A stretch of DNA of 64,000 bases. It comes from an uncultured Spirochaetales bacterium. Its GTDB lineage: Bacteria > Spirochaetota > Spirochaetia > DAHUYW01. The position numbers were made by a program, and so were the translations under genes. The stretch spans positions 31,521 to 95,520 of the forward strand of contig CAZDMH010000006.1 of assembly GCA_964506755.1 (NCBI GenBank). Direction: 5' to 3'. Below, in pieces: positions 8,442 to 43,616 of this stretch (positions are counted from its first letter, which is position 1; the number at the start of each line of letters is the position of its first letter). Under the pieces are notes generated by a model. The model did not search any database. It was not told the origin of the DNA and saw only the letters and a program-made list of their open reading frames with translations.

Positions 8442-9356
8442 TCAAGGCTCCAAATGTGACACCGGAACCAGGAGTACGGGGACGTTGATGCGGCTCAGGA
8501 CTCGGCTTGCGATGCTTCCCTCCCAAATTGCCGACATGCCGCTCTTACCGTGGGTTCCGAGAACCAGCAACCGCGCCTGCCGTTCGACGACGCTCTCGCA
8601 GATGACGGTCGCCGGATCGCCTCGTCGAAGCTCCGCCGACACCGTTAGGCCGAGCCGTTCGAACTCCCGGCATTCGTTTTCCAGGTACTCCTCCGCCTCT
8701 TCGGCCGCCATCTCGAGCATTCGGTCGGCGCTTGTCGGGAGCAACTTCGTGGAATCCTCCCACTTGCCGGGAAGGGTGCGCAGGGTGGGAACGACCATCA
8801 ACAAGTGTACCACGCTCTGCGTTTCAATCGCGAACTCGCCGGCCACCGAGACGCTTTTCTCATGCTCCGGTGTGCCGTCGAGCGGAACGAGGAACGGCGA
8901 AAGCGTGAGGATCTCCGGTGCAACCTTCTGAGAGCTCGGATGCACGATGAGAACGGGGACCGTTCCGAGGGAAACGAGCTTCTGAGCGATGCTGCCGAAC
9001 ACGAGGGTATTGGGGCCGCTTCTCCCGTGGGTGCACATGACGATTAGATCGTGGTCGAACTCTTCCTGATGATCCGCTATGCTGCGAGCGACGCCGCTGA
9101 CCGGAATATCGTGGACATGATAATTCACCTTTATCTCGGAGCCGAAGAAGCGCTCCGCGGTGGAACGGAGATAGTCGTCGGCCTCCTCCTTCGTGGTCAG
9201 GTGACGCTCCCCGTGGATTTCACTCGGAGCCCTTCCTTCGATGATGTGGACAAGTGTCACCTCCGACGCTCCGTGTTTCGAGAGGTAGGCTGCTGCCGAC
9301 AGAGAAGCTTCAGCGAGTTGAGAGCCGTCCAAGGGAATGAGGATGTGCTTAAACAT
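8442..9356 (-). CDS. tandem universal stress protein (two UspA domains)
   Basis: It has two UspA-like halves, each with ...ILIPLDGS.../...LVMCTHGRSG... ATP-binding-type motifs. The ATG at 9354-9356 lies 4 nt downstream of the mntH stop. The ORF extends to 9386. Confidence 0.8.
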   Translation of the reverse strand: MFKHILIPLDGSQLAEASLSAAAYLSKHGASEVTLVHIIEGRAPSEIHGERHLTTKEEADDYLRSTAERFFGSEIKVNYHVHDIPVSGVARSIADHQEEFDHDLIVMCTHGRSGPNTLVFGSIAQKLVSLGTVPVLIVHPSSQKVAPEILTLSPFLVPLDGTPEHEKSVSVAGEFAIETQSVVHLLMVVPTLRTLPGKWEDSTKLLPTSADRMLEMAAEEAEEYLENECREFERLGLTVSAELRRGDPATVICESVVERQARLLVLGTHGKSGMSAIWEGSIASRVLSRINVPVLLVPVSHLEP

Positions 9357-9360
9357 TGGA

Positions 9361-10668
9361 TCAACCCCCCGCAAAGGTTTGAACAAGCAAATAGACGTTC
9401 AGCGCGAGTATGAGCGCCGCCACGATCGAAGAAACGATGGTCGTTGCACTCCGGCTGACAAGGACCCCCATTATGTCCTTGCGCGCCGTAAAGATGATTA
9501 GCGGCAGTATGGCAAAGGGAAGAGCAAAGCTCAAGATCACCTGACTGATTACGAGGGTTCGGGTCGGATCGAGGCCGATCGCGATGACCACTAGCGAAGG
9601 CACCATGGTCACGCCGCGTCTGACCCACACCGAGATCTTCTTGTTTATGAAACCTTGCATGACCACCTGCCCTGCGCTCGTCCCGACCGTGGAGGAGGAG
9701 AGACCCGATGCAAGCAGAGATATCCCGAAGATAACCCGGGCGGCAGATCCGAGAAGCGGCTCGAGCGTCTTTGAAGCGTCCTCTATGGTTGCGATCTGCG
9801 TCAGCCCATGGCGATGGAATGTCGCAGCGGCCATGATGAGCATCGCAGCATTTACGAGCCCTGCTATGCCCATGGCGATGATGACGTCGACGATCTCGTA
9901 GCGAAACAGCCGCTTTAACCGAGAGGGGTCCCGAACGACGATCCTCCCCTGCATCAATGCGGAATGAAGAAAGATAACGTGAGGCATGACCGTAGCCCCA
10001 ACGATTCCTGTGGCAAGCACGATGCTGTCAGGGCCTGAGAAATTGGGCAGAAGCCCCGTGACTGCGAGCTCGTGCCAATCAGGACGATCGAGCACAGTCT
10101 CGATGAGATAGCTTACTGCGATGATACCGACCATCGAGGTGATTATCGCCTCGATTTTTCGGAATCCATATTGCTCGAGAGCAAGGATCAGCGTGGTGGC
10201 AATCCCGGTCAGAAGACCGCCTACGAAGAGCGGAAAGCCGAAGATGAGGTTGAAACCGATAGCCGCCCCGAGGAACTCCGCGAGATCGGTGGCGATCGCC
10301 ATGATCTCCATGATGACCCACATGACGTAGACCACGGAGCGTGGGAAGCGTTCACGGCAGTGCTCTGCGAGGTTCTTCCCGGTGGCGATGCCCAATTTGG
10401 CCGAGAGCGTCTGAATGAGCATCGCCATGAGATTGCTCGCAAGTATCACCCAGACCAGAGTGTATCCGAACTCCGAACCCGCCTGGATGTTCGTGGCGAA
10501 ATTACCAGGGTCGATGTAGGCCACACAGGCGATGAAGGCCGGCCCGAGAAACGGCATGAGGCGCTTGAAGGGGTTGCGTTGCTCCGTTCCGGCAAGCGCG
10601 TCGCGTGCGGCGGCGATCGTCCCGGAGTCGCCGCTGCTCTTGCTGGTTACATCCTGGAAGTCATCCAC
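9361..10668 (-). CDS. mntH: NRAMP-family divalent metal (Mn2+/Fe2+) transporter
   Basis: 435 aa and ~11 TM segments. Signature GPAFIACVAYIDPGNFATNIQAGSEFGY (DPGN motif) and MPH motif region. Confidence 0.9.
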   Translation of the reverse strand: MDDFQDVTSKSSGDSGTIAAARDALAGTEQRNPFKRLMPFLGPAFIACVAYIDPGNFATNIQAGSEFGYTLVWVILASNLMAMLIQTLSAKLGIATGKNLAEHCRERFPRSVVYVMWVIMEIMAIATDLAEFLGAAIGFNLIFGFPLFVGGLLTGIATTLILALEQYGFRKIEAIITSMVGIIAVSYLIETVLDRPDWHELAVTGLLPNFSGPDSIVLATGIVGATVMPHVIFLHSALMQGRIVVRDPSRLKRLFRYEIVDVIIAMGIAGLVNAAMLIMAAATFHRHGLTQIATIEDASKTLEPLLGSAARVIFGISLLASGLSSSTVGTSAGQVVMQGFINKKISVWVRRGVTMVPSLVVIAIGLDPTRTLVISQVILSFALPFAILPLIIFTARKDIMGVLVSRSATTIVSSIVAALILALNVYLLVQTFAGG

Positions 10669-10679
10669 GTGATCTCCTC

Positions 10680-11357
10680 CTATTCCCGGTATTCTGTCTC
10701 GTTCTCACAGACGTTCACGATCAGCTGCCCTGCCGAGTTCTGACCGAGGGTATGCTGCAACTTTCCGACCGAGATTGTTATCAACCCGTCAACGGGCTCG
10801 ATCGATTTGACGACGACACGAGTGCCCAGACTGAGGCCGAGCTCGTCCAAGCGCTCGAGCAGACGCGGATCGCGGTCGTTCACCTCGATGATCTCGGCGC
10901 TCTCTCCGGGTTTCAGGCTGGTGAGTCGGACGCGGCCGTTATCCATTACGGTTCCTTCCCGCGAGGGTATCGGGGAGCCGTGGGGATCGGTAAGCGGATG
11001 ATCGAGCATCTCGTCGATTCGGTCCTCGAGGTACTCCGAGATGACATGCTCGAGGCGCTCCGCCTCGACGTGTACACGGTCCCACGGGACTCCGAGTGCC
11101 TCGGCGAGGTAGGTTTCAAGGAGGCGATGGTGACGAATGGTCTCGAGGGCGATGAGCCTTCCCGCCTCGGTAAGAGTTGCTCCTCGATACGGTGAGTAAT
11201 AGACCAACTCGAGGCCCGCGAGTTTCTTCAGCTGACCGGTCACCGTCGCCGCCGAGAAGCCGAGGCGGTCTGCGAGTAGGGTCGTCGTCGCGTGTTCGCG
11301 GTCCAGCTCGAGCATATATATCTCTTTCAGGTAGTCTTGATCGGTGTCCGTCGTCAT
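10680..11357 (-). CDS. DtxR/MntR-family metal-dependent transcriptional repressor with C-terminal FeoA/SH3-like domain
   Basis: 225 aa with an N-terminal winged-HTH DtxR domain (…LGFSAATVTGQLKKLAG…) and metal-site helices (…RHHRLLETYL…), plus a C-terminal FeoA-like domain. It lies immediately upstream of mntH. Confidence 0.9.
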   Translation of the reverse strand: MTTDTDQDYLKEIYMLELDREHATTTLLADRLGFSAATVTGQLKKLAGLELVYYSPYRGATLTEAGRLIALETIRHHRLLETYLAEALGVPWDRVHVEAERLEHVISEYLEDRIDEMLDHPLTDPHGSPIPSREGTVMDNGRVRLTSLKPGESAEIIEVNDRDPRLLERLDELGLSLGTRVVVKSIEPVDGLITISVGKLQHTLGQNSAGQLIVNVCENETEYRE

Positions 11358-11404: not shown

Positions 11405-11440
11405 GTAGTATATAGTGAAGAAATTGATTTCTGTCAATCG
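11405..11440 (-). promoter_or_regulatory. sigma70-like promoter for the DtxR-family/mntH/usp operon (TTGACA-18-TATATA on the minus strand)
   Basis: In a ~115-bp AT-rich island (11358-11474) within a 60% GC genome. The -35 hexamer reads TTGACA on the minus strand (11433-11438), with TATATA/TATACT about 17-18 nt downstream. Confidence 0.4.
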
Positions 11441-11474: not shown

Positions 11475-14400
11475 CTATTGATCGTACCAATCGGAGCCGA
11501 ATAGCCGCCCCGCGGTGAGATCACGGGCGGCCCGGCTCTCTGTCGTTCTCGGGCTCGAGGCGGTCGTGCCGGCGGTTGTGCCGCCGAACAGCGGGTAGCG
11601 CATGGCAAGAGCGGGGTCGATCTTGCTCATTCGCTCGAAGGTGCGACGAGCGTCCGACTCCTTTCCAGCCTGAACGTAGCTGAATGCAAGACGAACAAGG
11701 ACATGAGCGTTGTCCGGATCGATGCGACCGGCCTTCTGCAGATACTCCTGGGCTTTGCCGTACTGCTTCTGCAGGCTGCAGACGTTCGCGGCGTTTATCA
11801 GCGCGGGCAGATACTCTGTCGAGGAGAGCACCTTCTCGAACGTAGTGAGCGCCTTCTCAAAGAGACCGAACTGGGCGTAGAGGATTCCGAGCTGGTTTTC
11901 TCGGGCCGGGGAGGGAGACAGCGAGAGCGATGCAATGATCGCTTTCTCTCGAGGGACGAGGGCCGACCGGCGGTAGTCCGCCAAATCGGATTCATAAAGC
12001 GACCTCACCCGCTCGCGTTCAGGTATCGGAGTCGAAATGGCGGGACTATAACCCGCCGGTGGATAGAGCCTCCATGCCTCCTTGGTCGTGAACAACTGGG
12101 CAAGCCCGCGCGCGTTTGCCTCCCTCCATTCGACCGCTGCCGTCCGCCACGCCTTCGTGAACCCCTGGTCGACGACGGTCGTCTCGACGGGAATCCATGC
12201 CGTGCCGTCGCGTGAGATAAAATCCTCCGGGGAGGTGAAAAGGCGGGCGGCGAGCTCCGCGGGGACTCCTGAATCGAACGCAGTGAAGATGTGTCCCGGT
12301 GTGGTGATGTAGGCAGTCGAGACGCCGACCGATTCGAGAAGGCTGTTGTAGAGAACTGAAAGATCGTCGCAGTCGCCTGACCTGCTATCGAGGGTTTCGA
12401 CTGGGAAGCGAACGAAATCGATTGAAGAGTTGTCGCGGGAGAGCGATTCGTAGGCGCTCGAGGGATCGACCACATATCGAACCCCCGCTGCGCGCATGGC
12501 AGAGAAAAGCCGGGCCGCCGAGAGAAAGCTCTGCGGGAGGAGGCTCGTCGGGATGTCATCCACCATCCCAATGACCTGACCGCTGAACCGCAGCAATGCA
12601 GGGTCGGTGGTCGTCATGAACGAACCGATCTTTCGATCGTCCGTCCACCGAATTGCGTTTCGATTGAGGATCCCAACTGGCCTGCTGGTCATCGACTGAT
12701 AGACCTTGCCGGCGGCCGTATACGTGACGGTGATCTGGGCCTCACCGGTTGTGCTTTCGCCGCGATCCAGCAGCGAGGAGTCGAACAGGGCTCGAATATT
12801 GATTGACACCGACTGACCGACTCCGAGGGCCGGTGGAAGCTCCGCCGGGCTCGGAGCCTGCATCAATCCGGGAACAAAAAGCGTGAGCGACGGTTCGGTA
12901 AGAACAGTCGGTCCGATGTTCTGCAGAGTAACCGTACCGAGTGCGTGGTCGGCGTAATAGCGGTAGTGAGCCGGAAAGACGCCGCCGATTTCCAGGTCGC
13001 GAAGCAGAAGGCTTGGACCCGCGCCCACGCTCGGCACATGGACGCCGTAGCGGTCGAGCTTCTCACCGGTGAATGGATTCTCAGAGAGAGCCACGGGATA
13101 TGTATCTGTCGCCGATGGGATCGAGATGCGAAAATCGCTGTAGCCTATTCCTGCCGGAGAGTCGACCCGGGTAGCGATAATCCGCGCCTCATGCCAATTG
13201 CGGTACAGAGCTCGGGCGGCGTCGCGCTCGAGCCTGACGCTGGCATCGGTATCCATGAACCGAACGGAGTAGGTCTTCGAGTCTATGTCGTATGCACCTT
13301 GCGTCTCGAGGGGGACGGCAACCGCATACTCTGCTCCGGACTGCGGCAAACGGCGGCCTCGGTAGTGCCGCTCAGTCGCTCGGCCAAGGAGGGACACGAT
13401 CGACGTGCGAAGCCTGCCCCTCCGCGCGGTGTATTCGCTTTCCGTTTCAAACATATCCCGCGGGGCGGTCAGCGCAGGATCGACGGAGGCGAGGATCTGC
13501 CCGGCCAACGCGTCGTCGAGGAAGCTGCGTTGAGCACCCGACACCCTACCGTTTATCGCCGACAGCAGCAGACCGAGAGGTGAGGATCCCACTCCCTTGG
13601 TCGACCAGAGACCGAGGCCGTTGGATTCACTTCGTCCCGTGATTGCAAGCTTCGTGCCGTCGGCCGAAAACGCCATGTCGCGTATGTTTCCATGATGCGG
13701 GGTGAAGGTCGCCACCGGACGCCAGGTGCCGTCTGCGATCCTCCACACCCGTACGTCGCGGGTGTGGCCGGTCAACAGGAACCTGCCGTCGGGCGAGAAC
13801 CGGACTGAATGGACCGGACCCAGCTCGATGTTCCCGACGATCTGTGCCGGCAGAAAGCCGGCGCCCTTCGACCTGCCGTCCCAACCTTTCCCCGGCTTGC
13901 CCGCGCCTGTTGAGTCTTGTCGCCAAATCCGAAGCGTATCCGCGTACCCGGCAGCGAGCCATTTGCCGTCTGGAGAAAAGGCTATTTGCTCGTACTCTCG
14001 GGAGAGGTTTCGCTCCCCGTTGGTGTAGCTGTAGCTCTCTTCGAGTCGGTTGCCCTCAACACTGTAGACTACGACACTTCGCTCCATCTGCTCGCTTTGG
14101 GCCACGGCCACTTGCCGTCCGTCGGGCGAGAAGGAGATTGAAGAGATCGCGGGACCGTAGCCGGTGTACCGGAAGACCGGAGTGAAGCTCCTGCCGTCTC
14201 GTCGCCACAGGAACAGCTCATCGTGCGTCGCGGAAACGAGATGCTCTCCGTCGAGGCTGAGTGCGAGGCTGACCACGGTGGCGTCATGGTCGGTGAGCAC
14301 CACCAGTGGCGCGCCGTTTTTGGGGTTGACGAGTGCGATATCGTTGTCGGTGCGGAACGCGGGGAAGATCAGAAAGGACTCGTCAGGCGCGAACTGGAGG

Positions 14401-14690
14401 ATCGAGGCGTTGCGGAATGTGCCGCCCCAGTAAACTGGCTGCTTGTGTTTCCAGAGGAGCTCCCAGCTCTCGTCGAGCACACGAACGGAGTTCCCTTCGC
14501 TCCAATCAGCAAGCGCTACGAAGCTTCCGAACCGGGAGAGCTCGACATCGACGCCCTGATCTGCCGACGGTACGAAACGGATCTGGTTCGCTTCGAAGTC
14601 CTCGCCGGCGGCGCATGGCGCCAAACCCCATCCGAACGCGAGGAAAGCAACGATCGCGACGATCCCCCCCTTTCGAACCATCGGATTCAC
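11475..14690 (-). CDS. exported WD40 beta-propeller / transglutaminase-like cysteine-protease-core / TPR multi-domain protein
   Basis: 1071 aa with a signal peptide. Repeated ...FSPDG... WD40 blades sit in the N-terminal ~330 aa. The central Cys/His/acid triad reads GDCDDLSVLY...TPGHIF...WIPVETT (transglutaminase-like fold). TPR helices lie at the C-terminus. The annotated start is GTG, and an in-frame ATG lies 3 codons in. Confidence 0.8.
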   Translation of the reverse strand: MNPMVRKGGIVAIVAFLAFGWGLAPCAAGEDFEANQIRFVPSADQGVDVELSRFGSFVALADWSEGNSVRVLDESWELLWKHKQPVYWGGTFRNASILQFAPDESFLIFPAFRTDNDIALVNPKNGAPLVVLTDHDATVVSLALSLDGEHLVSATHDELFLWRRDGRSFTPVFRYTGYGPAISSISFSPDGRQVAVAQSEQMERSVVVYSVEGNRLEESYSYTNGERNLSREYEQIAFSPDGKWLAAGYADTLRIWRQDSTGAGKPGKGWDGRSKGAGFLPAQIVGNIELGPVHSVRFSPDGRFLLTGHTRDVRVWRIADGTWRPVATFTPHHGNIRDMAFSADGTKLAITGRSESNGLGLWSTKGVGSSPLGLLLSAINGRVSGAQRSFLDDALAGQILASVDPALTAPRDMFETESEYTARRGRLRTSIVSLLGRATERHYRGRRLPQSGAEYAVAVPLETQGAYDIDSKTYSVRFMDTDASVRLERDAARALYRNWHEARIIATRVDSPAGIGYSDFRISIPSATDTYPVALSENPFTGEKLDRYGVHVPSVGAGPSLLLRDLEIGGVFPAHYRYYADHALGTVTLQNIGPTVLTEPSLTLFVPGLMQAPSPAELPPALGVGQSVSINIRALFDSSLLDRGESTTGEAQITVTYTAAGKVYQSMTSRPVGILNRNAIRWTDDRKIGSFMTTTDPALLRFSGQVIGMVDDIPTSLLPQSFLSAARLFSAMRAAGVRYVVDPSSAYESLSRDNSSIDFVRFPVETLDSRSGDCDDLSVLYNSLLESVGVSTAYITTPGHIFTAFDSGVPAELAARLFTSPEDFISRDGTAWIPVETTVVDQGFTKAWRTAAVEWREANARGLAQLFTTKEAWRLYPPAGYSPAISTPIPERERVRSLYESDLADYRRSALVPREKAIIASLSLSPSPARENQLGILYAQFGLFEKALTTFEKVLSSTEYLPALINAANVCSLQKQYGKAQEYLQKAGRIDPDNAHVLVRLAFSYVQAGKESDARRTFERMSKIDPALAMRYPLFGGTTAGTTASSPRTTESRAARDLTAGRLFGSDWYDQ

Positions 14691-14751
14691 CCGGGTGCAT
14701 TATACCACACCTCTCCGGTCGGCGTGAGGACAGGGACGAGTAGAGGTATTT

Positions 14752-17505
14752 CTACTGTCCGTACAGGAGGTCGACGACCTTGAGCCCCGCGGAACCGTCG
14801 GTAACGTAGGCGTATCTACCCGAGACCGCAACGTCGCCGGCGCCGTAGTCGACAGGAACCGTGCGGGCGATCGCGGACGCAACGGGACTGCTCAAGTCGA
14901 CGATCTGGAGTCCTGCGGTCCAGTCAGCGACGACTGCATAGCCTCCCGCCACCGAGACTGCGTGTGCGTCCCCATCTGTGTTCACCGTTTGCGGGCTGCC
15001 CAAAGATGAGGGATCGGAAGCATCGGCGAACTTGAGGCCTGTCGTCCCGTCGGCCACGTAGACATAGTCGTCGGCTACTGCTACCCCGCGCGTCACATTC
15101 CCTGTCGCGAGAGTACCCACTGAAACCGGAGATCGCGGGTTGGAGACATCGAAGACCTCGAGCCCGGAGTATCCCTCCACGACGAATGCGTAGTGTCCTG
15201 AAACGAATACATCCTCGGCGGCGCCGATTGTCAAGGCCGTTCCGAGCACGCTCGGTGCAGTTGGATCGGAGATGTCCACAGCCAGAAGCCCGCCGACGCC
15301 CATTCCGACGTAGGCGTAGTCTCCGAAGACGTCGATACCCTTGGATTCGCCGGGAGTATAGAGCGTCTTCACCAGTGTTGCCTCCATCGGCGACGAGACG
15401 TCGACTATGTAGACGGTACCGGCCTGGCTCGCCACGTAGACGTAATCGCCGGACAGAGCAATCCCGTAGGAGAGTCCCGGTATCGAGACAGTTCGGATCG
15501 AATGGGGATGGGCCGGATCAGATACATCGACGACCTCCAGGGTGTCCCAGTCGGTAACGAATGCATAGTCCTCCGACGTCTTGACGAAGTTGGCGTAGGT
15601 ATAGCCAGGATCGGATCCGACAACCTCCGCCTCGATCGGAGCGTTGGTATCGAGGATGCTGAGAAAACCGGCGACGAGGGACACGTAGACAAACTCGCCG
15701 TCAATCGCAACGTCGGAGGCACTTCCGCCAATACTCATCACGGGAACGGCCACAGCCGGCGAAACGGGATTCGAGACGTCGATGATCTCGACGCCATTCG
15801 TACCCTCCGTGACGTAGGCTCGACTCCCTGCAACCGATACGCGAGAGGCATTCGCCGTCGTCGGAGCGGTACCTCTCAGAACTGCGGACTCGGGAATCGA
15901 AATGTCGATGACACACAGTCCCGATGCCCCGTTCGTCACGTAGGCATAGCCGTCTGAGAGCGCGATGTCCCATGCGTTTCCGACTTTGACCGTCCTAACA
16001 ACGGCAGCGGAGGCAATGGGCGATATCTTGACGATGTCGAGGTCGGCGCCATTCGTCACGTAGGCGTAGTTGCCGGATATTTTGATCGAGTAGGCGTATC
16101 CGGAGGAGGTCGTCACGGTCTTTACCACCGACGCAGTCTGGGGAGTGGAGAAGTCAATGACCTGCAGCCCCCCTGAGTGGGCGGCCGCGAAGGCGTAGTT
16201 GCCCTGGATGGCCACGTCACGAGCCCCCTTTGCAGTTGACACATCCCGGACCACCGCAGAGGAGGAGGGAAGAGTCATATCGATGATCCGTACCCCGCCC
16301 GTGGATCCGTCGACAATGTCAGCGTACGTCATGAAGAGGTAATTGCCGGCGGCCGTCACTACGTTTGCGTAGTTGTTTTCGGGTGCGGGAAACCACTGCA
16401 CGACGGAGGCGGAGGTCGGGTTCGAGACGTCGAGAACCTGAACGCCCTGATTGAAAACCGAGACATAAGCGCGAGCTCCGGATACCGAGACCGACTGTGC
16501 CGATGCCGATGTAGCGACAGTACGAACTATCCTGCCGCCGTTGAACGGAGAGGCTGCACCGTGGCTGGGGGCACTGAACAGCGAACCTTCAAGTGCCGGA
16601 CGTACCTTGTAGAAGTATCCGGCGCCGTCAGTTGCGCGCGCGTCGAGATACTCATTCATGGAGCGGGGCGCAGCGATAAGACTGTATGGTCCCGCCCGGT
16701 CGCTGCTTCGCCATACCTCGAAGTCGGAAGTTGCCGCAATCTGCGGCCACTTCAGTCGAATGGCCTTTCCTTCGGGAAACAGGCGAGGAGCGAGCGTACC
16801 CGAAGACAAGGGTATGGCCCGCACGATACCGGACCAGTCCTCCTCACCATTCGACGAGCGAGCCCTCAAGAGAAACACGTGCATGTTCCCGTTCGTGAGC
16901 CCGGAGAGCACCTGAGGAGAGGCAACGTCGAGAAGGGCAGAGCCATAGTAGGTCGCGGAGGGAATTGAGCCGTCGGTAGTGTAGAAGATGTCATAGCTTT
17001 CAGCCAGGGGAACGGCATTCCACTTGAGCGTGACTTCATGGTTTCCGGGGACGACTTGAAAAGACGGGATTGCACCGGCGTCGATTAGAGATATTGTTGC
17101 CGATCCCGTGTTCCCGTTCTTGTCCTTCGCCGTCACGCGAATCGACAAGCTCCCCGAGAGCCCGGCGGTCGGAAACTGAAACGTGAACTTGCCGTCGATA
17201 TCGACGCCGATTGGCCCCGTCAACGATGTCGCGAGCACCTCGTAGTTGACGGTCGCAATTGCCCCCTTGTCGCCGTTCGCCGTTGTAGCGTCCGAAATCA
17301 CGCCGTTCACGATTACCGTCGAGGAATAGGAACTGCCATCCTCAGGCGAGACTATCGAAATCGTGGGCGCCAGCTTGTCCTTGGCCTGCAGGACCATGTC
17401 CAGGCCCATTGGCATCGGGCATGCGATCAGGAGCGCCGCTGAGGCGAGCGTCACGACGATGAAAGCGAATTGCAGGCCTATCATCCTTCTTCGATCGTTT
17501 TTCAT
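14752..17505 (-). CDS. LVIVD-repeat beta-propeller lipoprotein with N-terminal Ig-like and FN3-like domains
   Basis: The ATG at 17503-17505 (MKNDRRRMIGLQFAFIVVTLASAALLIAC, lipobox) has a GGAGGAG RBS and lies 4 nt after the upstream stop. The ORF extends to 17664. About 14 repeats of G.YA.V..G..GL.VVD.S.P..P..V..V are present (LVIVD family). Confidence 0.8.
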   Translation of the reverse strand: MKNDRRRMIGLQFAFIVVTLASAALLIACPMPMGLDMVLQAKDKLAPTISIVSPEDGSSYSSTVIVNGVISDATTANGDKGAIATVNYEVLATSLTGPIGVDIDGKFTFQFPTAGLSGSLSIRVTAKDKNGNTGSATISLIDAGAIPSFQVVPGNHEVTLKWNAVPLAESYDIFYTTDGSIPSATYYGSALLDVASPQVLSGLTNGNMHVFLLRARSSNGEEDWSGIVRAIPLSSGTLAPRLFPEGKAIRLKWPQIAATSDFEVWRSSDRAGPYSLIAAPRSMNEYLDARATDGAGYFYKVRPALEGSLFSAPSHGAASPFNGGRIVRTVATSASAQSVSVSGARAYVSVFNQGVQVLDVSNPTSASVVQWFPAPENNYANVVTAAGNYLFMTYADIVDGSTGGVRIIDMTLPSSSAVVRDVSTAKGARDVAIQGNYAFAAAHSGGLQVIDFSTPQTASVVKTVTTSSGYAYSIKISGNYAYVTNGADLDIVKISPIASAAVVRTVKVGNAWDIALSDGYAYVTNGASGLCVIDISIPESAVLRGTAPTTANASRVSVAGSRAYVTEGTNGVEIIDVSNPVSPAVAVPVMSIGGSASDVAIDGEFVYVSLVAGFLSILDTNAPIEAEVVGSDPGYTYANFVKTSEDYAFVTDWDTLEVVDVSDPAHPHSIRTVSIPGLSYGIALSGDYVYVASQAGTVYIVDVSSPMEATLVKTLYTPGESKGIDVFGDYAYVGMGVGGLLAVDISDPTAPSVLGTALTIGAAEDVFVSGHYAFVVEGYSGLEVFDVSNPRSPVSVGTLATGNVTRGVAVADDYVYVADGTTGLKFADASDPSSLGSPQTVNTDGDAHAVSVAGGYAVVADWTAGLQIVDLSSPVASAIARTVPVDYGAGDVAVSGRYAYVTDGSAGLKVVDLLYGQ

Positions 17506-17509
17506 CTGC

Positions 17510-19711
17510 TCACTCCTCCTCGACAAAGAGAATGTCGGTGCGAGGGTTGATCTGCTCGGCCGCGCGTGCATCGCCGGCGCCCGAACCGGCGAGGAAGGCG
17601 AAACGCTGCGCCTCCTCCGGGTCGAGCTCGGCCGCCTGCGCGTAGAGGGAGGCGGCCGAGTCATAGCGGTCGAGAAGGTAGCTCGCGCGTGACATGTTGA
17701 GTAGAACCTTGGCCGCTATGGAGGTTGCCCCCTTGCCCGAACGCCTCAACAGAGCCAGCGTACGCTCGAAACGCGCGAGGGCCTCTGAGTATTGCTCACG
17801 GAGATAGAGGAGATTACCGAGATTAATCTGCGGGCTGAGATAGGACGGATCGATCTGCAGCGCCCTGCGAAACGACTGCTCCGCCGGTTCGAGGCGGTGC
17901 AACTGCGCATACCGGATACCGAGCCGATTGAAGTCCTCTTTTCGTCCACGTTCTCGCGTCACGGACACGAGATCCTGCACCATCAAATCGGCAAGCTTAC
18001 CGAGGTCCCGCTTGAACTCCCGCTGGATCGCCTCTCTGTCGCCGTACTGCAGTCCGAGGTCCGTCTCCTTCAATCCGACCGGTCGGTAAATCTCCTGGGA
18101 TTTCTGGGTAACGTAGAACGATCGCTTCTCCGGCCTCTCGTCGTAGAGGCTCCACTCTTCCATACCTTTGCGCCACGCGCTGAGAAAGTCGGCTTGGCCA
18201 ACCATCGTGATCTCGACCGGCACCCAGAGCTCGCCTTCGACTGCAATGGTCATCCGACGGTCCGGATGGACGAGTTGATATCTGCCGGCCGGCACCTTCG
18301 TGTTGAAAGCCGCATAGATGTGGCCGGGTACCGTGATGAACGCACTCTGAACTCCCGCAGCTTCGAGGAGGCTGCAGTAGACAACCGTCAGATCGTCGCA
18401 GTCGCCCGTTATGCGTTTGAGGGTGTCGCGTGGCAGACTGATGGAGTCGACGACGAGCGGATCTCCTTGGGCTTTCGTAAACGGCAACGCGGGATCGGCT
18501 TGGTAGAGACAGCCAATCTCGCCGAGAGCCGCAAAGAGCTGCATCCCGTACTGGATGGAGTCGTTGAATGATGGGATCGTCGCCTCCTTGCAGCTCTGGC
18601 GGATGAAGCTTGCGTAGTTTCGTAGCGCGCTGTCCGAGGGGGTAATGAACGCCGCGACCTTCCGGTCGTCATCCCAGGTTACCGCCGTCTTGTCATGGAG
18701 GTCATAGGATACCGACTGGCGCTGTTCAGCGGCCCGTCCCCTCACCTTGTAGGCGGCGATGATCTCCCCGGTAAGCGGCGTGACGCCCTCCGTGGTGAAT
18801 ACTTCGGAGTTGAAGGAGGCGAGAAGCGGTACCTTCACGCTCTCTCCCCCCCGAAGCTCGGGGATCGTCGCCGCGTGCGTGGGAGAATCCATATAGCCGG
18901 CTTGGTGAAACGATACCTCGAGGTCGGTCACGACATCCTTTTCGGTGTTGGTGATCGTCACCTCTCCAAGCGGGTGTTTGACGTAGTAGGATTGCATCGC
19001 CGCGAAAGCAGGGGGGATGCCGGCATCGGAGAAGCGCAGAGCGCGGATGATTGTCTGAGGCGCGTCTGGATCCTGGCCGAAGCGATAGTGAATGGAAAAG
19101 CCGACGCCAAGCAGCAGACCGTCGAAATCCGACAGTGGACCGAAGGATTTCAGATACTTGATGCTTGGGTGGACGTCGACGCTGAAATTGAAGGACGGAT
19201 CGAGCGATATCCTACCGCCCCCTTCGAGATAGAGATTCCCGTATCCGACGGTGCCGACCTCCGGAAGCAGGGAAGGAAAGTAGGACTCGGCGAATCCCCC
19301 CAGCACCTCTGCGCCGACCTCAAAGGTCTTCGCGAATCGGTGGGAAAACGAGATGCCCAATGCAGCGAACCAATTGCTGTGGGACCATTTGGCGGGCTCG
19401 CTGAGATCGCGGCTGTCGAACTGCATCATACCGGCCTTGAAGGTCGGCTGCACCACAGGAAGTGGGGGGATTGGCCAGCGGAGGAGCCCGGAAATCTGGT
19501 ATGCGTTGAAGGTGGCCCCGTAGGTACCGAAGGGAGAGAGCGATTCGTACTCGGCACTCAACGAGAACGGAAATCGATAGTAGGAATTGAGGTTGGAGGA
19601 GACGGAGCCCGTCCCGGGTTGGGATTGAGAATAGAGTGGCGCTGAAAGGAGGAGAAGAAGTATGAGGAACAGCCACGTTCCGCGCCGACCACCGGAATGA
19701 TGCATGATCAT
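17510..19711 (-). CDS. exported beta-rich N-domain / transglutaminase-like core / TPR protein (paralogous module to 11475-14690)
   Basis: The ATG at 19709-19711 has an AGGAGG RBS at 19718-19723. The signal peptide is MIMHHSGGRRGTWLFLILLLLLSAPLYSQ. The N-terminal ~250 aa are amphipathic beta-strand-rich (possibly barrel-like). The core reads GDCDDLTVVYCSLLEAAGV...VPGHIY...WVPVEIT, and TPR sits at the C-terminus. The ORF extends to 19753. Confidence 0.75.
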   Translation of the reverse strand: MIMHHSGGRRGTWLFLILLLLLSAPLYSQSQPGTGSVSSNLNSYYRFPFSLSAEYESLSPFGTYGATFNAYQISGLLRWPIPPLPVVQPTFKAGMMQFDSRDLSEPAKWSHSNWFAALGISFSHRFAKTFEVGAEVLGGFAESYFPSLLPEVGTVGYGNLYLEGGGRISLDPSFNFSVDVHPSIKYLKSFGPLSDFDGLLLGVGFSIHYRFGQDPDAPQTIIRALRFSDAGIPPAFAAMQSYYVKHPLGEVTITNTEKDVVTDLEVSFHQAGYMDSPTHAATIPELRGGESVKVPLLASFNSEVFTTEGVTPLTGEIIAAYKVRGRAAEQRQSVSYDLHDKTAVTWDDDRKVAAFITPSDSALRNYASFIRQSCKEATIPSFNDSIQYGMQLFAALGEIGCLYQADPALPFTKAQGDPLVVDSISLPRDTLKRITGDCDDLTVVYCSLLEAAGVQSAFITVPGHIYAAFNTKVPAGRYQLVHPDRRMTIAVEGELWVPVEITMVGQADFLSAWRKGMEEWSLYDERPEKRSFYVTQKSQEIYRPVGLKETDLGLQYGDREAIQREFKRDLGKLADLMVQDLVSVTRERGRKEDFNRLGIRYAQLHRLEPAEQSFRRALQIDPSYLSPQINLGNLLYLREQYSEALARFERTLALLRRSGKGATSIAAKVLLNMSRASYLLDRYDSAASLYAQAAELDPEEAQRFAFLAGSGAGDARAAEQINPRTDILFVEEE

Positions 19712-19989
19712 CGCAGCACCTCCTGGCTCGAGATTATTGTCTATGCGCTTCACTCCACCGTGGGGTGGATGTCGCGGTCAGTTAATCCCTGTTCGGTGCA
19801 GACATGATAAGTAGGGCCGGCTGACTCAATTGTATCCCGCCGACGGTCAGCTCGCAACCTGAAATTGCGCACGACCCAAACTCAGCTGCCGCGAGGGTGG
19901 GAAATCGAGACCGGGCAGAGCCCGTGCCGCGACAAATTTGTGGCAAAAAACCGACAATACGGGTACACTAATAGTGAAAAGGGGGGAGC

Positions 19990-21864
19990 ATGAAACAGCT
20001 TCATCAGCTCACCAGCGGACGCCGGTCGAGAACCGTGCGACGCTTGCTTCAAGTCGGTGGACTCTCGGCCCTTGCCGTTGTGGTTGCGATCCTGCTGGCT
20101 GCGTGCGGCGGCTCGAAGACGGAAATGAGCGCCGACCAAATAGCGTTCCAAAAGAAGATTGCTGAGAACAGCCTCCTGGCGAAGACTGTCAGGAAACCGG
20201 GCGGCGGAAAATACGAGAAAGGCGTTGTCGGCGGAACTTGGATGACCAGCATCAACAACGACCCGAAGAGCTTCAATACCCTTACGGCTCGCGACGCCGA
20301 CACGGGATCGGTTGTCGCCGGCCTCTACGACTACCTTCTCGACTACGATCCCTACACCAAGGAATGGAAGCCGAACCTTGCCTCTTACGAGGTGAAGACG
20401 GACGAACAAGCGGGGACGATGGACGTGATTTTCACGCTCCGTGACGACCTCTATTGGACGACCCTGGCCGACCCGGGCAAAAAGGTGAAGGTGACCTCCG
20501 ACGACGTCGTCTATTGGTACAACGAGATCGACGGCGACAAGGAGCTACAGCTGCCCGGCTATGCAGGACAGTTCATCGATATGCCCGACGGCACGAAGAA
20601 ACGAATCGAAATACAGAAGATCGATGACCGCAGTTTCGTAATGAAGTATCCACGGATCATTGCGATGCCCGAGCTCTCGAGCAACATGACCTTCGGCCCG
20701 AAGTATATCTTCGAGCCCGTTAAGAAAGCGAAGGGAGCGGAGGGGGTGCTCACCCTCTGGTCTATCGACACCGATCCCAGGACCATCCCTTCGATCGGCG
20801 AGTACTACATCGCATCCTACCGACCGGGGATCAGCGTCACCCTCCAACGGAATCCGAACTACTGGAAGAAGGACGACTACGGCCAGACACTGCCCTACAT
20901 CCAGACAGTAGAAATGAAGGTAATACCGAATCGCGAAACCGAGAAGCTGAAGTTCCTTGCCGGGGATATCGACGGTTACAGCCTCCGTCCCGAGGATCTC
21001 AAGGAGATGGTCGAGAAGAGCCCGCGTGACTACACGGTCTACTACTCGGGCCCGAGCCTTGGCGCGGCGTTCATCTCGTGGAACGAGAACCCTGCCAATC
21101 TCGCCCCGAAGTACGTCAAGTGGTTCTCGAACACGAAGTTCCGCCAGGCAATGAGCTGTTTCTTCAACAGGGACCGCATTGTGAAGGAGGTCTACCGGGG
21201 GCTCGCCGAGCCGGCCATCTACATGTTCGCCCGACCGAATCCCTACTTCGACCCGAACATAAAGGAGCAGTATCTCTACGATCCTGCGCGCGGGAAGAGG
21301 CTCCTTGCCGAGATCGGCATCAAACCGAACAAAGACGGCCTGATGCAGGATTCCGACGGCAATCTCATCGAGTACGATATGATCATGGGCGTGGAGAACA
21401 ACATAGGGATCGACATCGCGAACATCTACGCAGACGACCTCAAGAAGGTCGGAATCACGCTTCACGTGAAGCCGGTGAACTTCCAGAAGCTCGTCGACAG
21501 CATAATCAATACTTATGACTGGCAGTCGGTAATGGTCGCGTTGGGTTCGAACTACTGGCCGATACAGGGGTCAAACGTCTGGCAGTCGAGCGGCAACTTT
21601 CACATTTGGCACCCGCTTCAGGAGAAGCCGGCGACCACCTGGGAGGCAAAGATCGACGAGCTGTATCAGAAAGGGTACGTTACGCGCGATCACACGGCAG
21701 CGAAGAAGATCTGGGATGAATATCAGCAATTGATTCTCGATCAGCTCCCATTGATGTACATGGTCTACGCCGACGGTTTCTCCGCCTATCGGGACAAGTG
21801 GGCGAACCTTCGTGTCGACAACCTCAACTCGCCGGACCTTCGGTACGTTTATCTGCCGAAATAG
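19990..21864 (+). CDS. ABC transporter substrate-binding lipoprotein, family 5 (peptide/nickel type)
   Basis: 624 aa with lipobox LAACGGS and a GGGGAG RBS. Typical SBP_bac_5 fold blocks are present. It is followed by cognate permeases and ATPases. Confidence 0.9.
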   Translation: MKQLHQLTSGRRSRTVRRLLQVGGLSALAVVVAILLAACGGSKTEMSADQIAFQKKIAENSLLAKTVRKPGGGKYEKGVVGGTWMTSINNDPKSFNTLTARDADTGSVVAGLYDYLLDYDPYTKEWKPNLASYEVKTDEQAGTMDVIFTLRDDLYWTTLADPGKKVKVTSDDVVYWYNEIDGDKELQLPGYAGQFIDMPDGTKKRIEIQKIDDRSFVMKYPRIIAMPELSSNMTFGPKYIFEPVKKAKGAEGVLTLWSIDTDPRTIPSIGEYYIASYRPGISVTLQRNPNYWKKDDYGQTLPYIQTVEMKVIPNRETEKLKFLAGDIDGYSLRPEDLKEMVEKSPRDYTVYYSGPSLGAAFISWNENPANLAPKYVKWFSNTKFRQAMSCFFNRDRIVKEVYRGLAEPAIYMFARPNPYFDPNIKEQYLYDPARGKRLLAEIGIKPNKDGLMQDSDGNLIEYDMIMGVENNIGIDIANIYADDLKKVGITLHVKPVNFQKLVDSIINTYDWQSVMVALGSNYWPIQGSNVWQSSGNFHIWHPLQEKPATTWEAKIDELYQKGYVTRDHTAAKKIWDEYQQLILDQLPLMYMVYADGFSAYRDKWANLRVDNLNSPDLRYVYLPK

Positions 21865-21886
21865 GGTCGCGACAACGGCAGGGTAG

Positions 21887-22972
21887 ATGGCACAACTTCG
21901 GCTGAAGCTCGGGGCCTGGGAGCGGGCAGGCGATCGCCTCGCACGGATTCGCGAACGCCACCCGCTTTCCACGTTTCTCGCCGGGCGTACGGTAACAATG
22001 CTCGTCATGCTGTTCTTTCTCGGACTGGGCGTCTTTGGCCTCATGACTCTCGCCCCCGGGGACATCGTGGACAACTACGTTCGCAGTCAGATGTTCACAA
22101 TGAACAACTACCGCACTGCCGACAACACCATCACGCAGGAGCAGATCCAGCAAGAGAAGCACCGTCTCGGCCTCGACCTGCCGTTCTACGATCAGTATTT
22201 CCGGTGGCTCTATCAGGTGTTCGTGAAACACGATCTCGGGCGTTCCCTTATTTCGAGGGCACCTGTTCTCTTTCTCGTTTCGACGCGGATGATGAACTCA
22301 ATCATCCTCAATCTCATCTCCCTCGTCTTTCTCACCACGATCTCGTTCGCGCTCGGCATCTTTTTCTCATCAAAAGCCGGAACGCGAATCGACCCTGTCG
22401 TTGCCTTCGTGAGTCTCTTTCTCAATGCGTTCCCCGGTATCCTCATGCTTCTGCTTCTGCAGATATTCGCAGCATCCACCGGTTGGTTCCCCGTGACTGC
22501 CTATCCAACCGAGAACTTCACGGGACGTCCCTTCGGGTTCGCCTTCTCCTATCTCTATCACATCACCTTGCCGCTCATCGGTGCGTTCCTCGGGGGAATC
22601 GGGGGCTCGCTGCGACTTATCCGAGCAACAATGCTTGATCAGCTCGGTCAGCCCTACATAACAGCACTCCGCTCGCGCGGAATCGGGGAACCGAGAATCT
22701 ACTTCAACCACGCCTTTCGCAACACGATGAACCCCTTCATCACGAGCTCATCGAATCTCCTCGCGAGCCTTTTTTCCGGGTCGCTCATCCTGGAGATCAT
22801 CTTCTCCTATCCGGGGATCGGACGGCTCATGTACGAGGCGGTTCTGCAGAAGGACATCAATCTGGTCATGACGAATGTCATGTTCATCAGTTTCCTCATT
22901 CTCATCGGCATGCTTATCTCGGATATCGCGCTCGCCCTCGTCGATCCGAGGATACGGTACTCGGCGGCATGA
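21887..22972 (+). CDS. ABC transporter permease (DppB/OppB-like)
   Basis: BPD_transp_1 signature region with an N-terminal ...LAPGDIVDNYV... block typical of OppB/DppB. The true start is probably downstream of 21887. Confidence 0.85.
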   Translation: MAQLRLKLGAWERAGDRLARIRERHPLSTFLAGRTVTMLVMLFFLGLGVFGLMTLAPGDIVDNYVRSQMFTMNNYRTADNTITQEQIQQEKHRLGLDLPFYDQYFRWLYQVFVKHDLGRSLISRAPVLFLVSTRMMNSIILNLISLVFLTTISFALGIFFSSKAGTRIDPVVAFVSLFLNAFPGILMLLLLQIFAASTGWFPVTAYPTENFTGRPFGFAFSYLYHITLPLIGAFLGGIGGSLRLIRATMLDQLGQPYITALRSRGIGEPRIYFNHAFRNTMNPFITSSSNLLASLFSGSLILEIIFSYPGIGRLMYEAVLQKDINLVMTNVMFISFLILIGMLISDIALALVDPRIRYSAA

Positions 22973-24051
22973 AACGGTTTTGGACCATCCTCAAGCACAG
23001 GCCGATCGCCTTCGCCGCGCTGGTCGTACTGATCATCCTCTATACCGGCATGGTCTTCTGCGAGTTTCTCGCTCCCTACGGTCGAAACGAGCTCTTCGCG
23101 CAGCACTCGAACGAGCCTCCCAACCTCATCTGGTACTCTTCGGAGCTTGGGTTCCGGCCTCAGGTCCAGCGCATGGTGCTGATCAACGACATAACGCGGG
23201 AGTACGTTCGGGTCAAGGGCGAGTACACTGCAGTCCGTTTCTTCACGAGGGGACCCGAGGTTCGGATGTGGGGTCTCGTTTCGATCAAGACGCACCTCTT
23301 CGGGACAGCCTCCTACGGTGGGGGGGAAGAGAAGTTTCAACCGGTATTTCTTTTCGGAGCGGACAACCTTGGACGCGACGTCTTCAGCCGGATTCTCTAC
23401 GGTTCTCGAATTTCCCTGACCATCGGGTTCGTCGGGGTGGCGATCTCCCTCACGCTTGCCCTCCTTTTCGGGGGGCTCGCCGGATACTTCGGAGGTATTT
23501 GGGACTGGATCATCATGCGGCTGTGCGAGTTCATCATCCTTGTCCCGGGGCTCTATCTCATCCTGTTTCTGCGTTCGATTCTCAGCACGAACCTCGATTC
23601 CGGTCAGACCTACGCCCTCATTACGGTTATTCTCTCCTTCGTCGGATGGCCGGGAACGGCGCGGATGATTCGCGGGATGGTACACGCGATCAAGCGCAAC
23701 GACTTCGTGGCGAACGCCGAGCTCGAATCGATGCCTTCTCTCGTGATAATTTTTCGCCACATCGTGCCGCAGATGTCGTCCATCCTCGTGGTGAGCGTCA
23801 CTCTAGGAGTACCCGGGTTCATTCTCGGCGAAACCATTCTATCCTATCTCGGACTCGGAATCGTGGACCCGGCAGTCAGCTGGGGCAGCATGATCAGCCG
23901 GGATGCCACCTCAATCTCCAACCTCGTCTCGTTTCCCTGGCTTCTCATCCCCGGGCTTTTTCTGCTGCTCGTCACACTGTCGTTCAATTTCCTCGGAGAG
24001 CTCCTGCGCGACGCCCTCGACCCCCATTGGAAGGAGCGACAGGGTGGGTGA
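22969..24051 (+). CDS. ABC transporter permease (DppC/OppC-like)
   Basis: 360 aa with 6 TM segments and the EAA-like loop. Its start overlaps the previous gene's stop (ATGA). Confidence 0.85.
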   Translation: MKRFWTILKHRPIAFAALVVLIILYTGMVFCEFLAPYGRNELFAQHSNEPPNLIWYSSELGFRPQVQRMVLINDITREYVRVKGEYTAVRFFTRGPEVRMWGLVSIKTHLFGTASYGGGEEKFQPVFLFGADNLGRDVFSRILYGSRISLTIGFVGVAISLTLALLFGGLAGYFGGIWDWIIMRLCEFIILVPGLYLILFLRSILSTNLDSGQTYALITVILSFVGWPGTARMIRGMVHAIKRNDFVANAELESMPSLVIIFRHIVPQMSSILVVSVTLGVPGFILGETILSYLGLGIVDPAVSWGSMISRDATSISNLVSFPWLLIPGLFLLLVTLSFNFLGELLRDALDPHWKERQGG

Positions 24052-43539: not shown

Positions 43540-43616
43540 TCTCTGTCCCGACCCTGATGGTAAGTAAACTTAAGTTAGTTGCTTCGCCATTATAACACGG
43601 CTAGTCGGGCTGTCAA

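Follow-up and report, generated by a model that had tools for sequence, protein, structure and literature searches.

What do three adjacent genes for very large exported proteins do in a spirochaete, and do they act as one unit? The question is raised by a block on the minus strand of a 64,000-nucleotide stretch (hereafter the window) of contig CAZDMH010000006.1 from an uncultured Spirochaetales bacterium, in which genes 1, 2, and 3 follow one another head to tail. An earlier note on this DNA had proposed that the block is probably one transcript and encodes an envelope or surface complex, with propeller and TPR modules presenting substrates to two transglutaminase-like cores. To our knowledge, the sorting, exposure, release, and anchoring of spirochaete lipoproteins are poorly understood, and none of these processes has been ascribed to an envelope enzyme of the transglutaminase fold. 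Comparison of related loci revealed that genes 1 and 2 are, by synteny, a conserved two-gene envelope cassette of Spirochaetota, in which a candidate cysteine enzyme with a predicted outer-membrane barrel is paired with a lipoprotein whose N-terminal tag is specific to the family. Gene 3 is a barrel-less paralogue of gene 1.

Genes 1 and 2 form a conserved pair in Spirochaetota

We scanned one genome per species and obtained 61 related loci, whose open reading frames (ORFs) were called, clustered, and mapped. Nearly all of these loci were labeled Spirochaetota (Spirochaetaceae, Oceanispirochaeta, Sediminispirochaeta, Treponemataceae, and Breznakiellaceae), and the few labeled otherwise are probably mis-binned. 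The best hits came from Spirochaetota, with identities of 50-71%. Forty-two gene 1-type loci could be scored for arrangement. A gene 2-like gene lay directly 3' on the same strand in 31 of the 42, most frequently with a one-base overlap of stop and start, and it adjoined in a different orientation in four; it was not found in the remaining seven, four of which stop at a contig edge. Of the trio, whose conservation as a unit the earlier note had suggested checking, only genes 1 and 2 were syntenic elsewhere. Several cassettes can occur at separate loci of one metagenome-assembled genome (MAG), as with L003, L050, and L058. Conserved accessory genes beside the cassette were rejected, since the flanking genes were unrelated housekeeping genes across the loci (for example, aldo-keto reductase, metallo-beta-lactamase, GNAT, and methyltransferase genes).

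The N-termini of the partner proteins aligned without gaps in 25 loci, including the window, and revealed invariant Cys0, Pro1, Pro3, Asp14, Pro18, and Pro25, with a hydrophobic residue at position 4 of the tether and mainly acidic or polar residues at positions 5 to 8. In gene 2 the cysteine is Cys29 of the lipobox LLIAC (...AALLIAC29); it is kept in 25 of 25 aligned partners, as expected of a lipoprotein. A lipobox followed by CPxP[ILMV] was observed in 21 of the 576 non-overlapping ORFs in the loci, and all 21 adjoin gene 1, while none of the 34 other lipobox-like ORFs of the same loci had the CPxP motif.

A comparable pairing was seen outside the gene 1 orthologues. In a sister subfamily, whose module is nearer to that of gene 3 and in which the N-terminal domain is usually barrel-like (OMP_b-brl, E 5e-5 in L053), every readable same-strand downstream gene encoded a lipoprotein. 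The partner bodies scanned in this subfamily contained Big_5, Flg_new, or cadherin-like plus Lcl_C domains, and their post-Cys motif was different and looser. For three distant members, the next gene encoded a cadherin-like plus DUF5122 protein, a BNR protein, and an LVIVD protein, respectively; the first two start with a lipobox, and the LVIVD protein appears to be split from its N-terminus.

Behind the tag, the body of gene 2 had been read as Ig-like domains, two FN3-like domains, and about 14 LVIVD blades. The blades were upheld: LVIVD (PF08309) scored 306 bits against a cutoff of 20.2 (E 1.9e-93, 13 stretches), and a 42-aa periodicity over approximately residues 331 to 917 agrees with 14 blades, which probably form two propellers of seven blades each. 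The Ig call was borderline (Big_9, E 1.4e-4, 23.2 bits against a cutoff of 23.6) and the FN3 call was weak (E 0.079). LVIVD repeats were described in 2004 (PMC2447325), and our literature search found no functional study of them after that description.

The lipoprotein part of the cassette varies in its gene content. Two consecutive lipoprotein genes were present in 13 loci, the LVIVD part often lying in the second. In seven Oceanispirochaeta-like loci (L013, L015, L016, L018, L020, L022, and L024), the CPxP-tagged partner is a giant of about 1400 to 1970 aa without LVIVD, and the Ig plus LVIVD part is borne by a second lipoprotein of about 1200 aa that comes next. Because the roles are split over two lipoproteins there, gene 2 of the window looks like a compact fusion of both. 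In four loci only (L002, 6402-7319; L019, 8450-9322; L023, 8437-9312; L060, 2211-3023), a small protein with TPRs, about 290 aa long (ORF cluster c20), lay directly beside the cassette; it may be an occasional third component.

A transglutaminase-fold module with a near-invariant Cys-His-Glu set

Genes 1 and 3 had been proposed to contain paralogous modules, and the alignment agreed: residues 238 to 739 of gene 1 and 560 to 1049 of gene 3 are 29% identical over a common module of about 500 residues (E 1e-57). A confident AlphaFold model of gene 1 residues 238 to 560 (predicted local distance difference test score, pLDDT, 93.3) showed a beta-sandwich followed by an alpha+beta core, with the Cys at the N-terminus of a helix and the His opening the next long strand, as in papain-like folds. 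The GDCDD, PGH, and WVPVE motifs place the candidate residues at C452, H478, and E514 in gene 1 and at C774, H800, and E836 in gene 3. Fold searches returned BDI_1141 (3kd4; value 9.8), Streptococcus pyogenes TglA (9.1), 3isr (9.0), PNGase (8.3), PeiW (8.3), TgpA (8.1), and LapG (7.6). With Foldseek, the sandwich matched Ig folds like that of PapD as well as the sandwich at the N-terminus of TG2 and TG3 from animals, and the entire sandwich-plus-core unit aligned with TG2 and TG3; the TM-scores against transglutaminase structures were low (0.2-0.29) because the domain orientations differ. At the level of the predicted structure, the transglutaminase fold of the module is confirmed.

Conservation of the candidate residues was examined in two sets of relatives. 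In an alignment of 39 homologues, D-C of GDCDD and P-G-H were invariant and the Glu of WVPVE was kept in at least 90%. Among about 250 diverse members taken from an exhaustive profile search, the Cys was present in 249 of 250, the His in 246 of 247, and the Glu in 234 of 235; these residues and the surrounding GDCDD and PGH motifs were kept in more than 99% of members that otherwise diverge widely. The Cys-His-acid set is therefore conserved at the level of residues, with Glu and not Asp as the acid. The earlier note had inferred a transglutaminase-like Cys/His/acid core and had said that it would fall if the GDCDD Cys or the PGH His were unconserved or the fold proved to be another; both residues are conserved and the predicted fold is transglutaminase-like.

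Sequence models were less telling for this module. In the Pfam scan of the three proteins, judged against gathering scores, and in the NCBIfam search, no model reached its cutoff on the shared module. For gene 1, TPR_2, TPR_12, and TPR_1 were above their cutoffs, and Transglut_core and OMP_b-brl were sub-threshold; BTLCP/LapG (PF06035) gave no match at E <= 0.1 to the block proteins, and the likeness to LapG is at the fold level only. Of the families that had been suggested for checking, LVIVD, WD40, and TPR were thus found above cutoff, Transglut_core below it, and BTLCP not at all. A profile of the module had no match among PDB sequences, and gene 1 itself matched only TPR proteins there.

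The N-terminal domain of gene 1 is a predicted outer-membrane barrel

The N-domain of gene 1 had been described only as beta-strand-rich; the domain is indeed present and conserved in orthologues, and its identity as an outer-membrane barrel had been missed. A word-indexed search for homologues of the domain returned 1 and then 10 proteins, and the model built on these 11 sequences had a pLDDT of 82.7 and eight long strands. At the fold level, the eight antiparallel strands after the signal peptide and the aromatic final strand are those of a small outer-membrane barrel. The domain ends in ...G-F-S-x-x-Y-R-F in the orthologues and is followed by a Gly-x-Asp-Pro-Asp linker. By sequence, OMP_b-brl (PF13505) reached 18.5 bits on gene 1, below its cutoff of 28.7; it was also sub-threshold in 9 of 32 orthologues, in which the remaining weak matches were all to outer-membrane barrel families too. 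The predicted barrel resembles the poreless barrels NspA and OmpA.

In small even-stranded outer-membrane barrels, the N- and C-termini both face the periplasm. For the predicted eight-stranded barrel of gene 1, this would leave the sandwich, the catalytic core, and the TPR hanging in the periplasm, tethered beneath the outer membrane. A signal peptide was read directly from the N-terminus of all three products, as the earlier note had stated together with the lipobox of the middle protein, and the envelope placement that it gave the proteins is supported.

A candidate pathway for lipoprotein recognition and processing

We hypothesize that gene 1 recognizes and acts on its cognate lipoprotein as a periplasmic cysteine peptidase or transamidase, a general model for which we judge the chances to be about even. 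Following insertion of its barrel into the outer membrane, gene 1 would hold the sandwich, the core (Cys452-His478-Glu514), and the TPR below the membrane in an OmpA-like manner. Gene 2 would be translated from the overlapping or abutting start, and its mature N-terminus would present the tag, consisting of Cys-Pro-x-Pro-hydrophobic, an acidic stretch, and the first Ig domain, ahead of a variable Ig-like and propeller body. The TPR and beta-sandwich part of gene 1 would then recognize this tag, and the Cys-His-Glu center would act on the lipoprotein by peptidase or transamidase chemistry, leaving it processed, released, or fixed at the inner face of the outer membrane.

The peptides bound by TPR domains are usually extended and often acidic. 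Recognition of the tag is favored because the tag is Pro-x-Pro followed by an acidic stretch, the kind of peptide that TPRs bind, and the tag would be within the enzyme's reach because it lies at the membrane-anchored end of the lipoprotein and the enzyme is predicted to be tethered to the outer membrane. The comparative data point to the conserved lipoprotein N-terminus, rather than to propellers that present substrate, as the element that is recognized. That the tag is the actual substrate site is a more tentative proposal. Since the tether has no invariant Gln or Lys, cross-linking at the tag is not favored and hydrolysis there is somewhat favored over it.

Several observations weigh against this model. 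All comparison loci come from MAGs, found by a pattern-limited scan of close relatives. The synteny of genes 1 and 2 indicates a functional linkage and not a substrate relationship, and D14, P18, and P25 may be invariant simply because the Ig domain begins there. The tether has no invariant Gln or Lys in the 25-locus alignment, and no cleavage site can be named. The third residue of the candidate triad is Glu instead of the usual Asp, and Transglut_core (PF01841) scored only 14.0 to 15.5 bits on the block proteins and 17 to 20 bits on relatives against a cutoff of 23.

The enzyme could instead be directed at peptidoglycan, cutting or forming isopeptide or peptide bonds in the sacculus or attaching an envelope protein to an amine of peptidoglycan. 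In that role the enzyme would tether the outer membrane to the wall or act as a remodeling factor, and the lipoprotein would be its structural or regulatory partner. We consider this unlikely. Among the fold matches are indeed two pseudomurein endo-isopeptidases, PeiW and PeiP, and the TgpA periplasmic domain, a barrel joined to a periplasmic domain is the OmpA-like layout typical of wall-contacting proteins, and a TPR-SpoIID protein is encoded 3 kb away (6223-8376). However, the Pfam scan found no OmpA_C, LysM, or SPOR domain, the SpoIID neighbor is not kept in the other loci, and a wall-directed activity leaves the strict pairing with a family-specifically tagged lipoprotein unexplained.

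Similarly improbable is an assembly factor that works like Slam or a BAM accessory, in which the TPR would capture the cognate lipoprotein in the periplasm and aid its insertion or transfer to the surface, and the core would serve quality control or binding. Neisseria Slam likewise combines TPR and an outer-membrane barrel with an adjoining putative client, and one relative of gene 1 had a weak TPR_Slam match (E 0.0029). The partner bodies (Ig, cadherin-like, Flg_new, and LVIVD) are adhesin-like, as surface proteins would be, and the post-Cys signal is reminiscent of Bacteroidota lipoprotein export signals. Nevertheless, a folded propeller cannot pass through an eight-stranded barrel like those of the poreless NspA and OmpA, the domain order is opposite to that of Slam with no DUF560 barrel in the Pfam scan, and the invariant Cys-His-Glu speaks for chemistry over binding.

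If recognition and chemistry are combined as we propose, the cassette would represent an undescribed spirochaete lipoprotein pathway, in which an outer membrane-tethered enzyme reads a Cys-Pro-x-Pro tag and covalently processes its cognate lipoprotein. This full version is possible but doubtful. It would mean either cleavage from the lipid anchor, and hence release, or transamidation onto an envelope component such as peptidoglycan, and it would provide several enzyme-client cassettes per genome together with barrel-less WD40 variants that have other clients. The cassette offers a concrete candidate enzyme-client pair, with a candidate active site (Cys452, His478, and Glu514) and a candidate recognition tag (lipobox-Cys-Pro-x-Pro...), and hundreds of natural variants allow comparison. 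Its importance would be modest if, in environmental spirochaetes, the enzyme serves a single class of accessory surface proteins only.

Gene 3 represents a barrel-less class of a large family

An exhaustive search for the family returned 3316 cluster representatives at E <= 1e-3 and 1572 at E <= 1e-30 (clusters at 50% identity). The main class has 650 to 750 aa and consists of barrel, module, and TPR. In a second recurrent class of about 1013 to 1090 aa, the module lies near residue 540 to 590, and the members that were aligned are full-length orthologues of gene 3, in which a WD40 propeller and a middle domain replace the barrel. The members looked up were named only "hypothetical protein" or "TPR repeat protein". 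The cassette defines a large family, of about 3300 clusters at 50% identity, with no specific name among the members looked up and no solved structure.

For gene 3 itself, the WD40 and TPR assignments of the earlier note, like the TPR assignment in gene 1, were matched above cutoff by Pfam; WD40 (PF00400) scored 81.5 bits against a cutoff of 27 (E 3.5e-23). The middle domain had no Pfam match and no PDB sequence match. Gene 3 has LAPC, a poor lipobox, and its orthologues mostly have ordinary signal peptides, and we read its product as a soluble exported protein. It would be a soluble periplasmic member of the enzyme family, with WD40 and middle domain in place of the barrel.

The proposal that all three proteins form one complex from one transcript, in which LVIVD and WD40 propellers and TPR present substrates to the two cores, fares worse than the alternatives above, and we regard it as quite improbable. 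The genes are adjacent on one strand, the gaps between them contain no terminator-like site, and genes 1 and 3 do have the paralogous module. The trio, however, is not a unit elsewhere: in the scan, no other locus had a gene 3-type gene next to gene 1 or gene 2, which is the outcome that the earlier note had named as speaking against it, and no gene 1-type locus had a gene 3 orthologue within its operon. The nearest exception was L002, in which a gene 3-like module lies about 5 kb off on the opposite strand. Gene 3 orthologues stand alone; the closest (53% identity) is flanked by a chemoreceptor gene and by a TPR gene on the opposite strand, and L058 is similar. No partner lipoprotein was found for WD40-class members in the contexts examined, and a perfect extended -10 element precedes gene 3. 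On these comparisons of gene order, the adjacency of gene 3 is a lineage-specific juxtaposition.

Least probable of all, and to be given little weight, is that the transglutaminase-fold domain is dead and the proteins are purely structural envelope scaffolds or adhesins, as the sub-threshold Transglut_core score would allow, since inactive enzyme lineages typically lose catalytic residues and here the Cys, His, and Glu with GDCDD and PGH are kept across the divergent members described above.

Two further kinds of family member were noted. P0204, P0215, and P0217 (1051-1075 aa) have the module near residue 199, as barrel-first members do, and carry a long C-terminal extension whose last part is a hydrophobic helix with a basic tail (...RIRRRKKP). 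This end looks like an inner-membrane anchor or sorting signal, and an anchor there would make the proteins span the periplasm. In three loci the gene 1 orthologue is broken into two or three ORFs (L042, 9536-11526; L065, 6001-8138; L066, 5348-8178); these are frameshifts or assembly errors in MAGs, and because of such splits many database entries of the family are only about 500 aa long.

Comparison with known systems

The earlier note knew of no characterized system with this combination, and we likewise found no characterized named system that matches. The action of LapG on LapA offers the closest working analogy for the cassette. LapG is a periplasmic transglutaminase-fold cysteine enzyme, as we propose for gene 1, and it cuts the N-terminal retention region of the large repeat-rich surface protein LapA in Pseudomonas and Legionella. 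Gene 1 differs from LapG in having no BTLCP match, a barrel anchor, TPR, and Glu as the third residue; its partner is a lipoprotein, whereas LapA is a type I secretion adhesin, and the cassette has no LapD-like regulator.

Slam resembles gene 1 in combining TPR with an outer-membrane barrel, in lying beside the gene for a cognate lipoprotein, and in allowing several pairs per genome. In Slam the TPR is N-terminal, the barrel is a 14-stranded DUF560 one, and an enzyme domain is absent, whereas the predicted barrel of gene 1 is N-terminal, eight-stranded, and poreless and a catalytic domain is predicted to be present. Membership of gene 1 in the Slam family was rejected on the missing DUF560 match, the eight-stranded N-terminal barrel, and the domain order, and membership among the type IX-like sortases was rejected on barrel size and domain order. 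With OmpA, gene 1 shares a barrel first and a periplasmic module second, but the periplasmic part is sandwich, transglutaminase fold, and TPR and not the peptidoglycan-binding OmpA_C domain.

TG2, TG3, and factor XIII and the bacterial BDI_1141 (3kd4), 3isr, and TgpA share with gene 1 a sandwich followed by the core, the Cys at a helix N-terminus, and the His on the next strand pair. Unlike these animal and bacterial transglutaminases, gene 1 has Glu for Asp and no C-terminal barrel domains, and it has no sequence-level kin among solved structures. The individual folds of the cassette are all already known, and combinations of transglutaminase-like domains with TPR occur elsewhere, for example, in the cytoplasmic SirB1/YchA family. 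What appears to be undescribed is the fusion of an outer-membrane barrel to a periplasmic transglutaminase-fold plus TPR unit, and the strict pairing of this enzyme with tagged lipoproteins and the size of the family appear to be so as well.

Among the NCBIfam models, ProA (NF058533, 1903 positions) matched gene 1 residues 261 to 536 with its positions 11 to 291 (E 2e-9, 35.4 bits) and gene 3 residues 724 to 857 (E 6e-8, 30.5 bits). The "anti-phage protein ProA" thus appears, from these alignments, to begin with a homologous beta-sandwich plus transglutaminase-fold module. Neither gene belongs to this equivalog: the 35.4 and 30.5 bits compare with a cutoff of 1500, 15% of the model is covered, and genes 1 and 3 encode exported envelope proteins. 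PADLOC gave no match for genes 1 and 2 and only weak matches to the WD40 and TPR regions of gene 3. A defense-system identity was therefore rejected, as the PADLOC matches are weak and confined to the gene 3 repeats and the ProA match reflects a shared domain. We found no publication on ProA, and searches on transglutaminase-like anti-phage proteins, S. pyogenes TglA, and transglutaminase-like spirochaete lipoproteins gave nothing useful.

BepA and BAM bring the same types of parts to the inner face of the outer membrane, namely the TPR-protease BepA, the propeller lipoprotein BamB, and the TPR lipoprotein BamD. Homology to the cassette is limited to the TPR repeats (sub-threshold) and the protease class differs, leaving an analogy of composition only.

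Layout, start sites, and transcription signals of the block

The ORF calls agreed with the earlier note on the three genes, their sizes, and the intergenic gaps of 4 nt and 61 nt (Table 1). For gene 1, ATG 19711, giving a product of 733 aa, is the more likely start than GTG 19753, since AGGAGG lies 7 nt upstream and the signal peptide follows directly. The longest alternative ORF of gene 2, from 17664, adds only a low-complexity Arg/Pro/Ser stretch that overlaps gene 1. The gene 2 ATG is preceded by GAGGAGGAG, which overlaps the final codons of gene 1, and translational coupling of the two genes is plausible.

The single three-gene transcript is doubtful, since the gap between genes 2 and 3 contains a perfect extended -10 element. 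The perfect form (TGNTATAAT) has two matches in the window (14699-14707 and 43589-43597, both on the minus strand) against 0.26 expected, and both are intergenic, correctly oriented, and aimed at the next gene. Because the element sits 8 nt before GTG 14690, gene 3 is probably its own, nearly leaderless transcription unit; no good Shine-Dalgarno sequence was found upstream of its start. Read-through from gene 2 would be compatible with the gap, as this has no terminator, and no terminator-like site was found in either gap of the block. The promoter-like site listed for gene 1 comes from a consensus scan in which the number of sites was not above the shuffle expectation.

Table 1. Features of the three-gene block (window coordinates; all on the minus strand)
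Feature	Position	Strand	Details and basis
Promoter-like site TTGCGA-17-TACAAT, 5' of gene 1	19829..19857	-	Consensus scan, pattern match only
Gene 1	17510..19753	-	747 aa from GTG 19753; ORF call; orthologues in 46 Spirochaetota loci
Gene 1 N-domain, predicted eight-stranded outer-membrane beta-barrel	19082..19567	-	About residues 63-224; ends ...HYRF
Gene 1 beta-sandwich	18677..19042	-	Residues 238-359; AlphaFold (AF2) model
Gene 1 transglutaminase-fold core	18083..18667	-	Residues 363-557; C452 (18398-18400), H478 (18320-18322), E514 (18212-18214)
Gene 1 C-terminal TPR region	17579..17998	-	About residues 586-725; Pfam TPR_2, TPR_12, TPR_1
Gene 2, partner lipoprotein	14752..17505	-	917 aa; ORF call; GAGGAGGAG immediately upstream
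Gene 2 signal peptide, lipobox (Cys29), and conserved tether CPMPMGLDMVLQAKDKLAPTISIVSP	17344..17505	-	Gapless 25-locus alignment
Gene 2 Ig-like domain and possible FN3-like region	16516..17367	-	Residues 47-140 and about 150-330; Big_9, fn3 weak matches
Gene 2 LVIVD repeats	14755..16515	-	About 14 blades
Perfect extended -10 element TGGTATAAT, gene 2-gene 3 gap	14699..14707	-	8 nt before GTG 14690
Gene 3, barrel-less paralogue	11475..14690	-	1071 aa; ORF call
Gene 3 WD40 propeller	13581..14558	-	About residues 45-370; FSPDG-type motifs at 100, 187, 238, 298, 341
Gene 3 middle domain	13014..13550	-	Residues 381-559; family not recognizable; conserved in L058
Gene 3 beta-sandwich and transglutaminase-fold module	12051..13013	-	C774, H800, E836
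Gene 3 TPR region	11601..11912	-	Pfam TPR_2, TPR_19, TPR_8

Genes on either side of the block

On the 5' side of gene 1, a divergent operon for an oligopeptide-type ATP-binding cassette (ABC) transporter (an SBP_bac_5 protein, two permeases, and two ATPases) occupies 19990-26088 on the plus strand. On the 3' side of gene 3, the minus strand at 8442-11357 holds genes for a FeoA-domain-containing repressor of the DtxR/MntR type, for the NRAMP transporter MntH, and for a tandem universal stress protein. A link of the cassette to the mntR-mntH-usp genes or to the peptide ABC transporter found no support, as these neighbors are not conserved and mntR has its own promoter-like site. This site, TTGACA-17-TATATA at 11409-11437 on the minus strand, lies ahead of mntR-mntH-usp in an AT-rich gap that may hold the operator of the repressor. 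Farther downstream, the minus-strand gene at 6223-8376 encodes a 717-aa protein with N-terminal TPR repeats and a SpoIID domain. SpoIID is a peptidoglycan-remodeling factor, and this protein is another fusion of TPR with an envelope enzyme.

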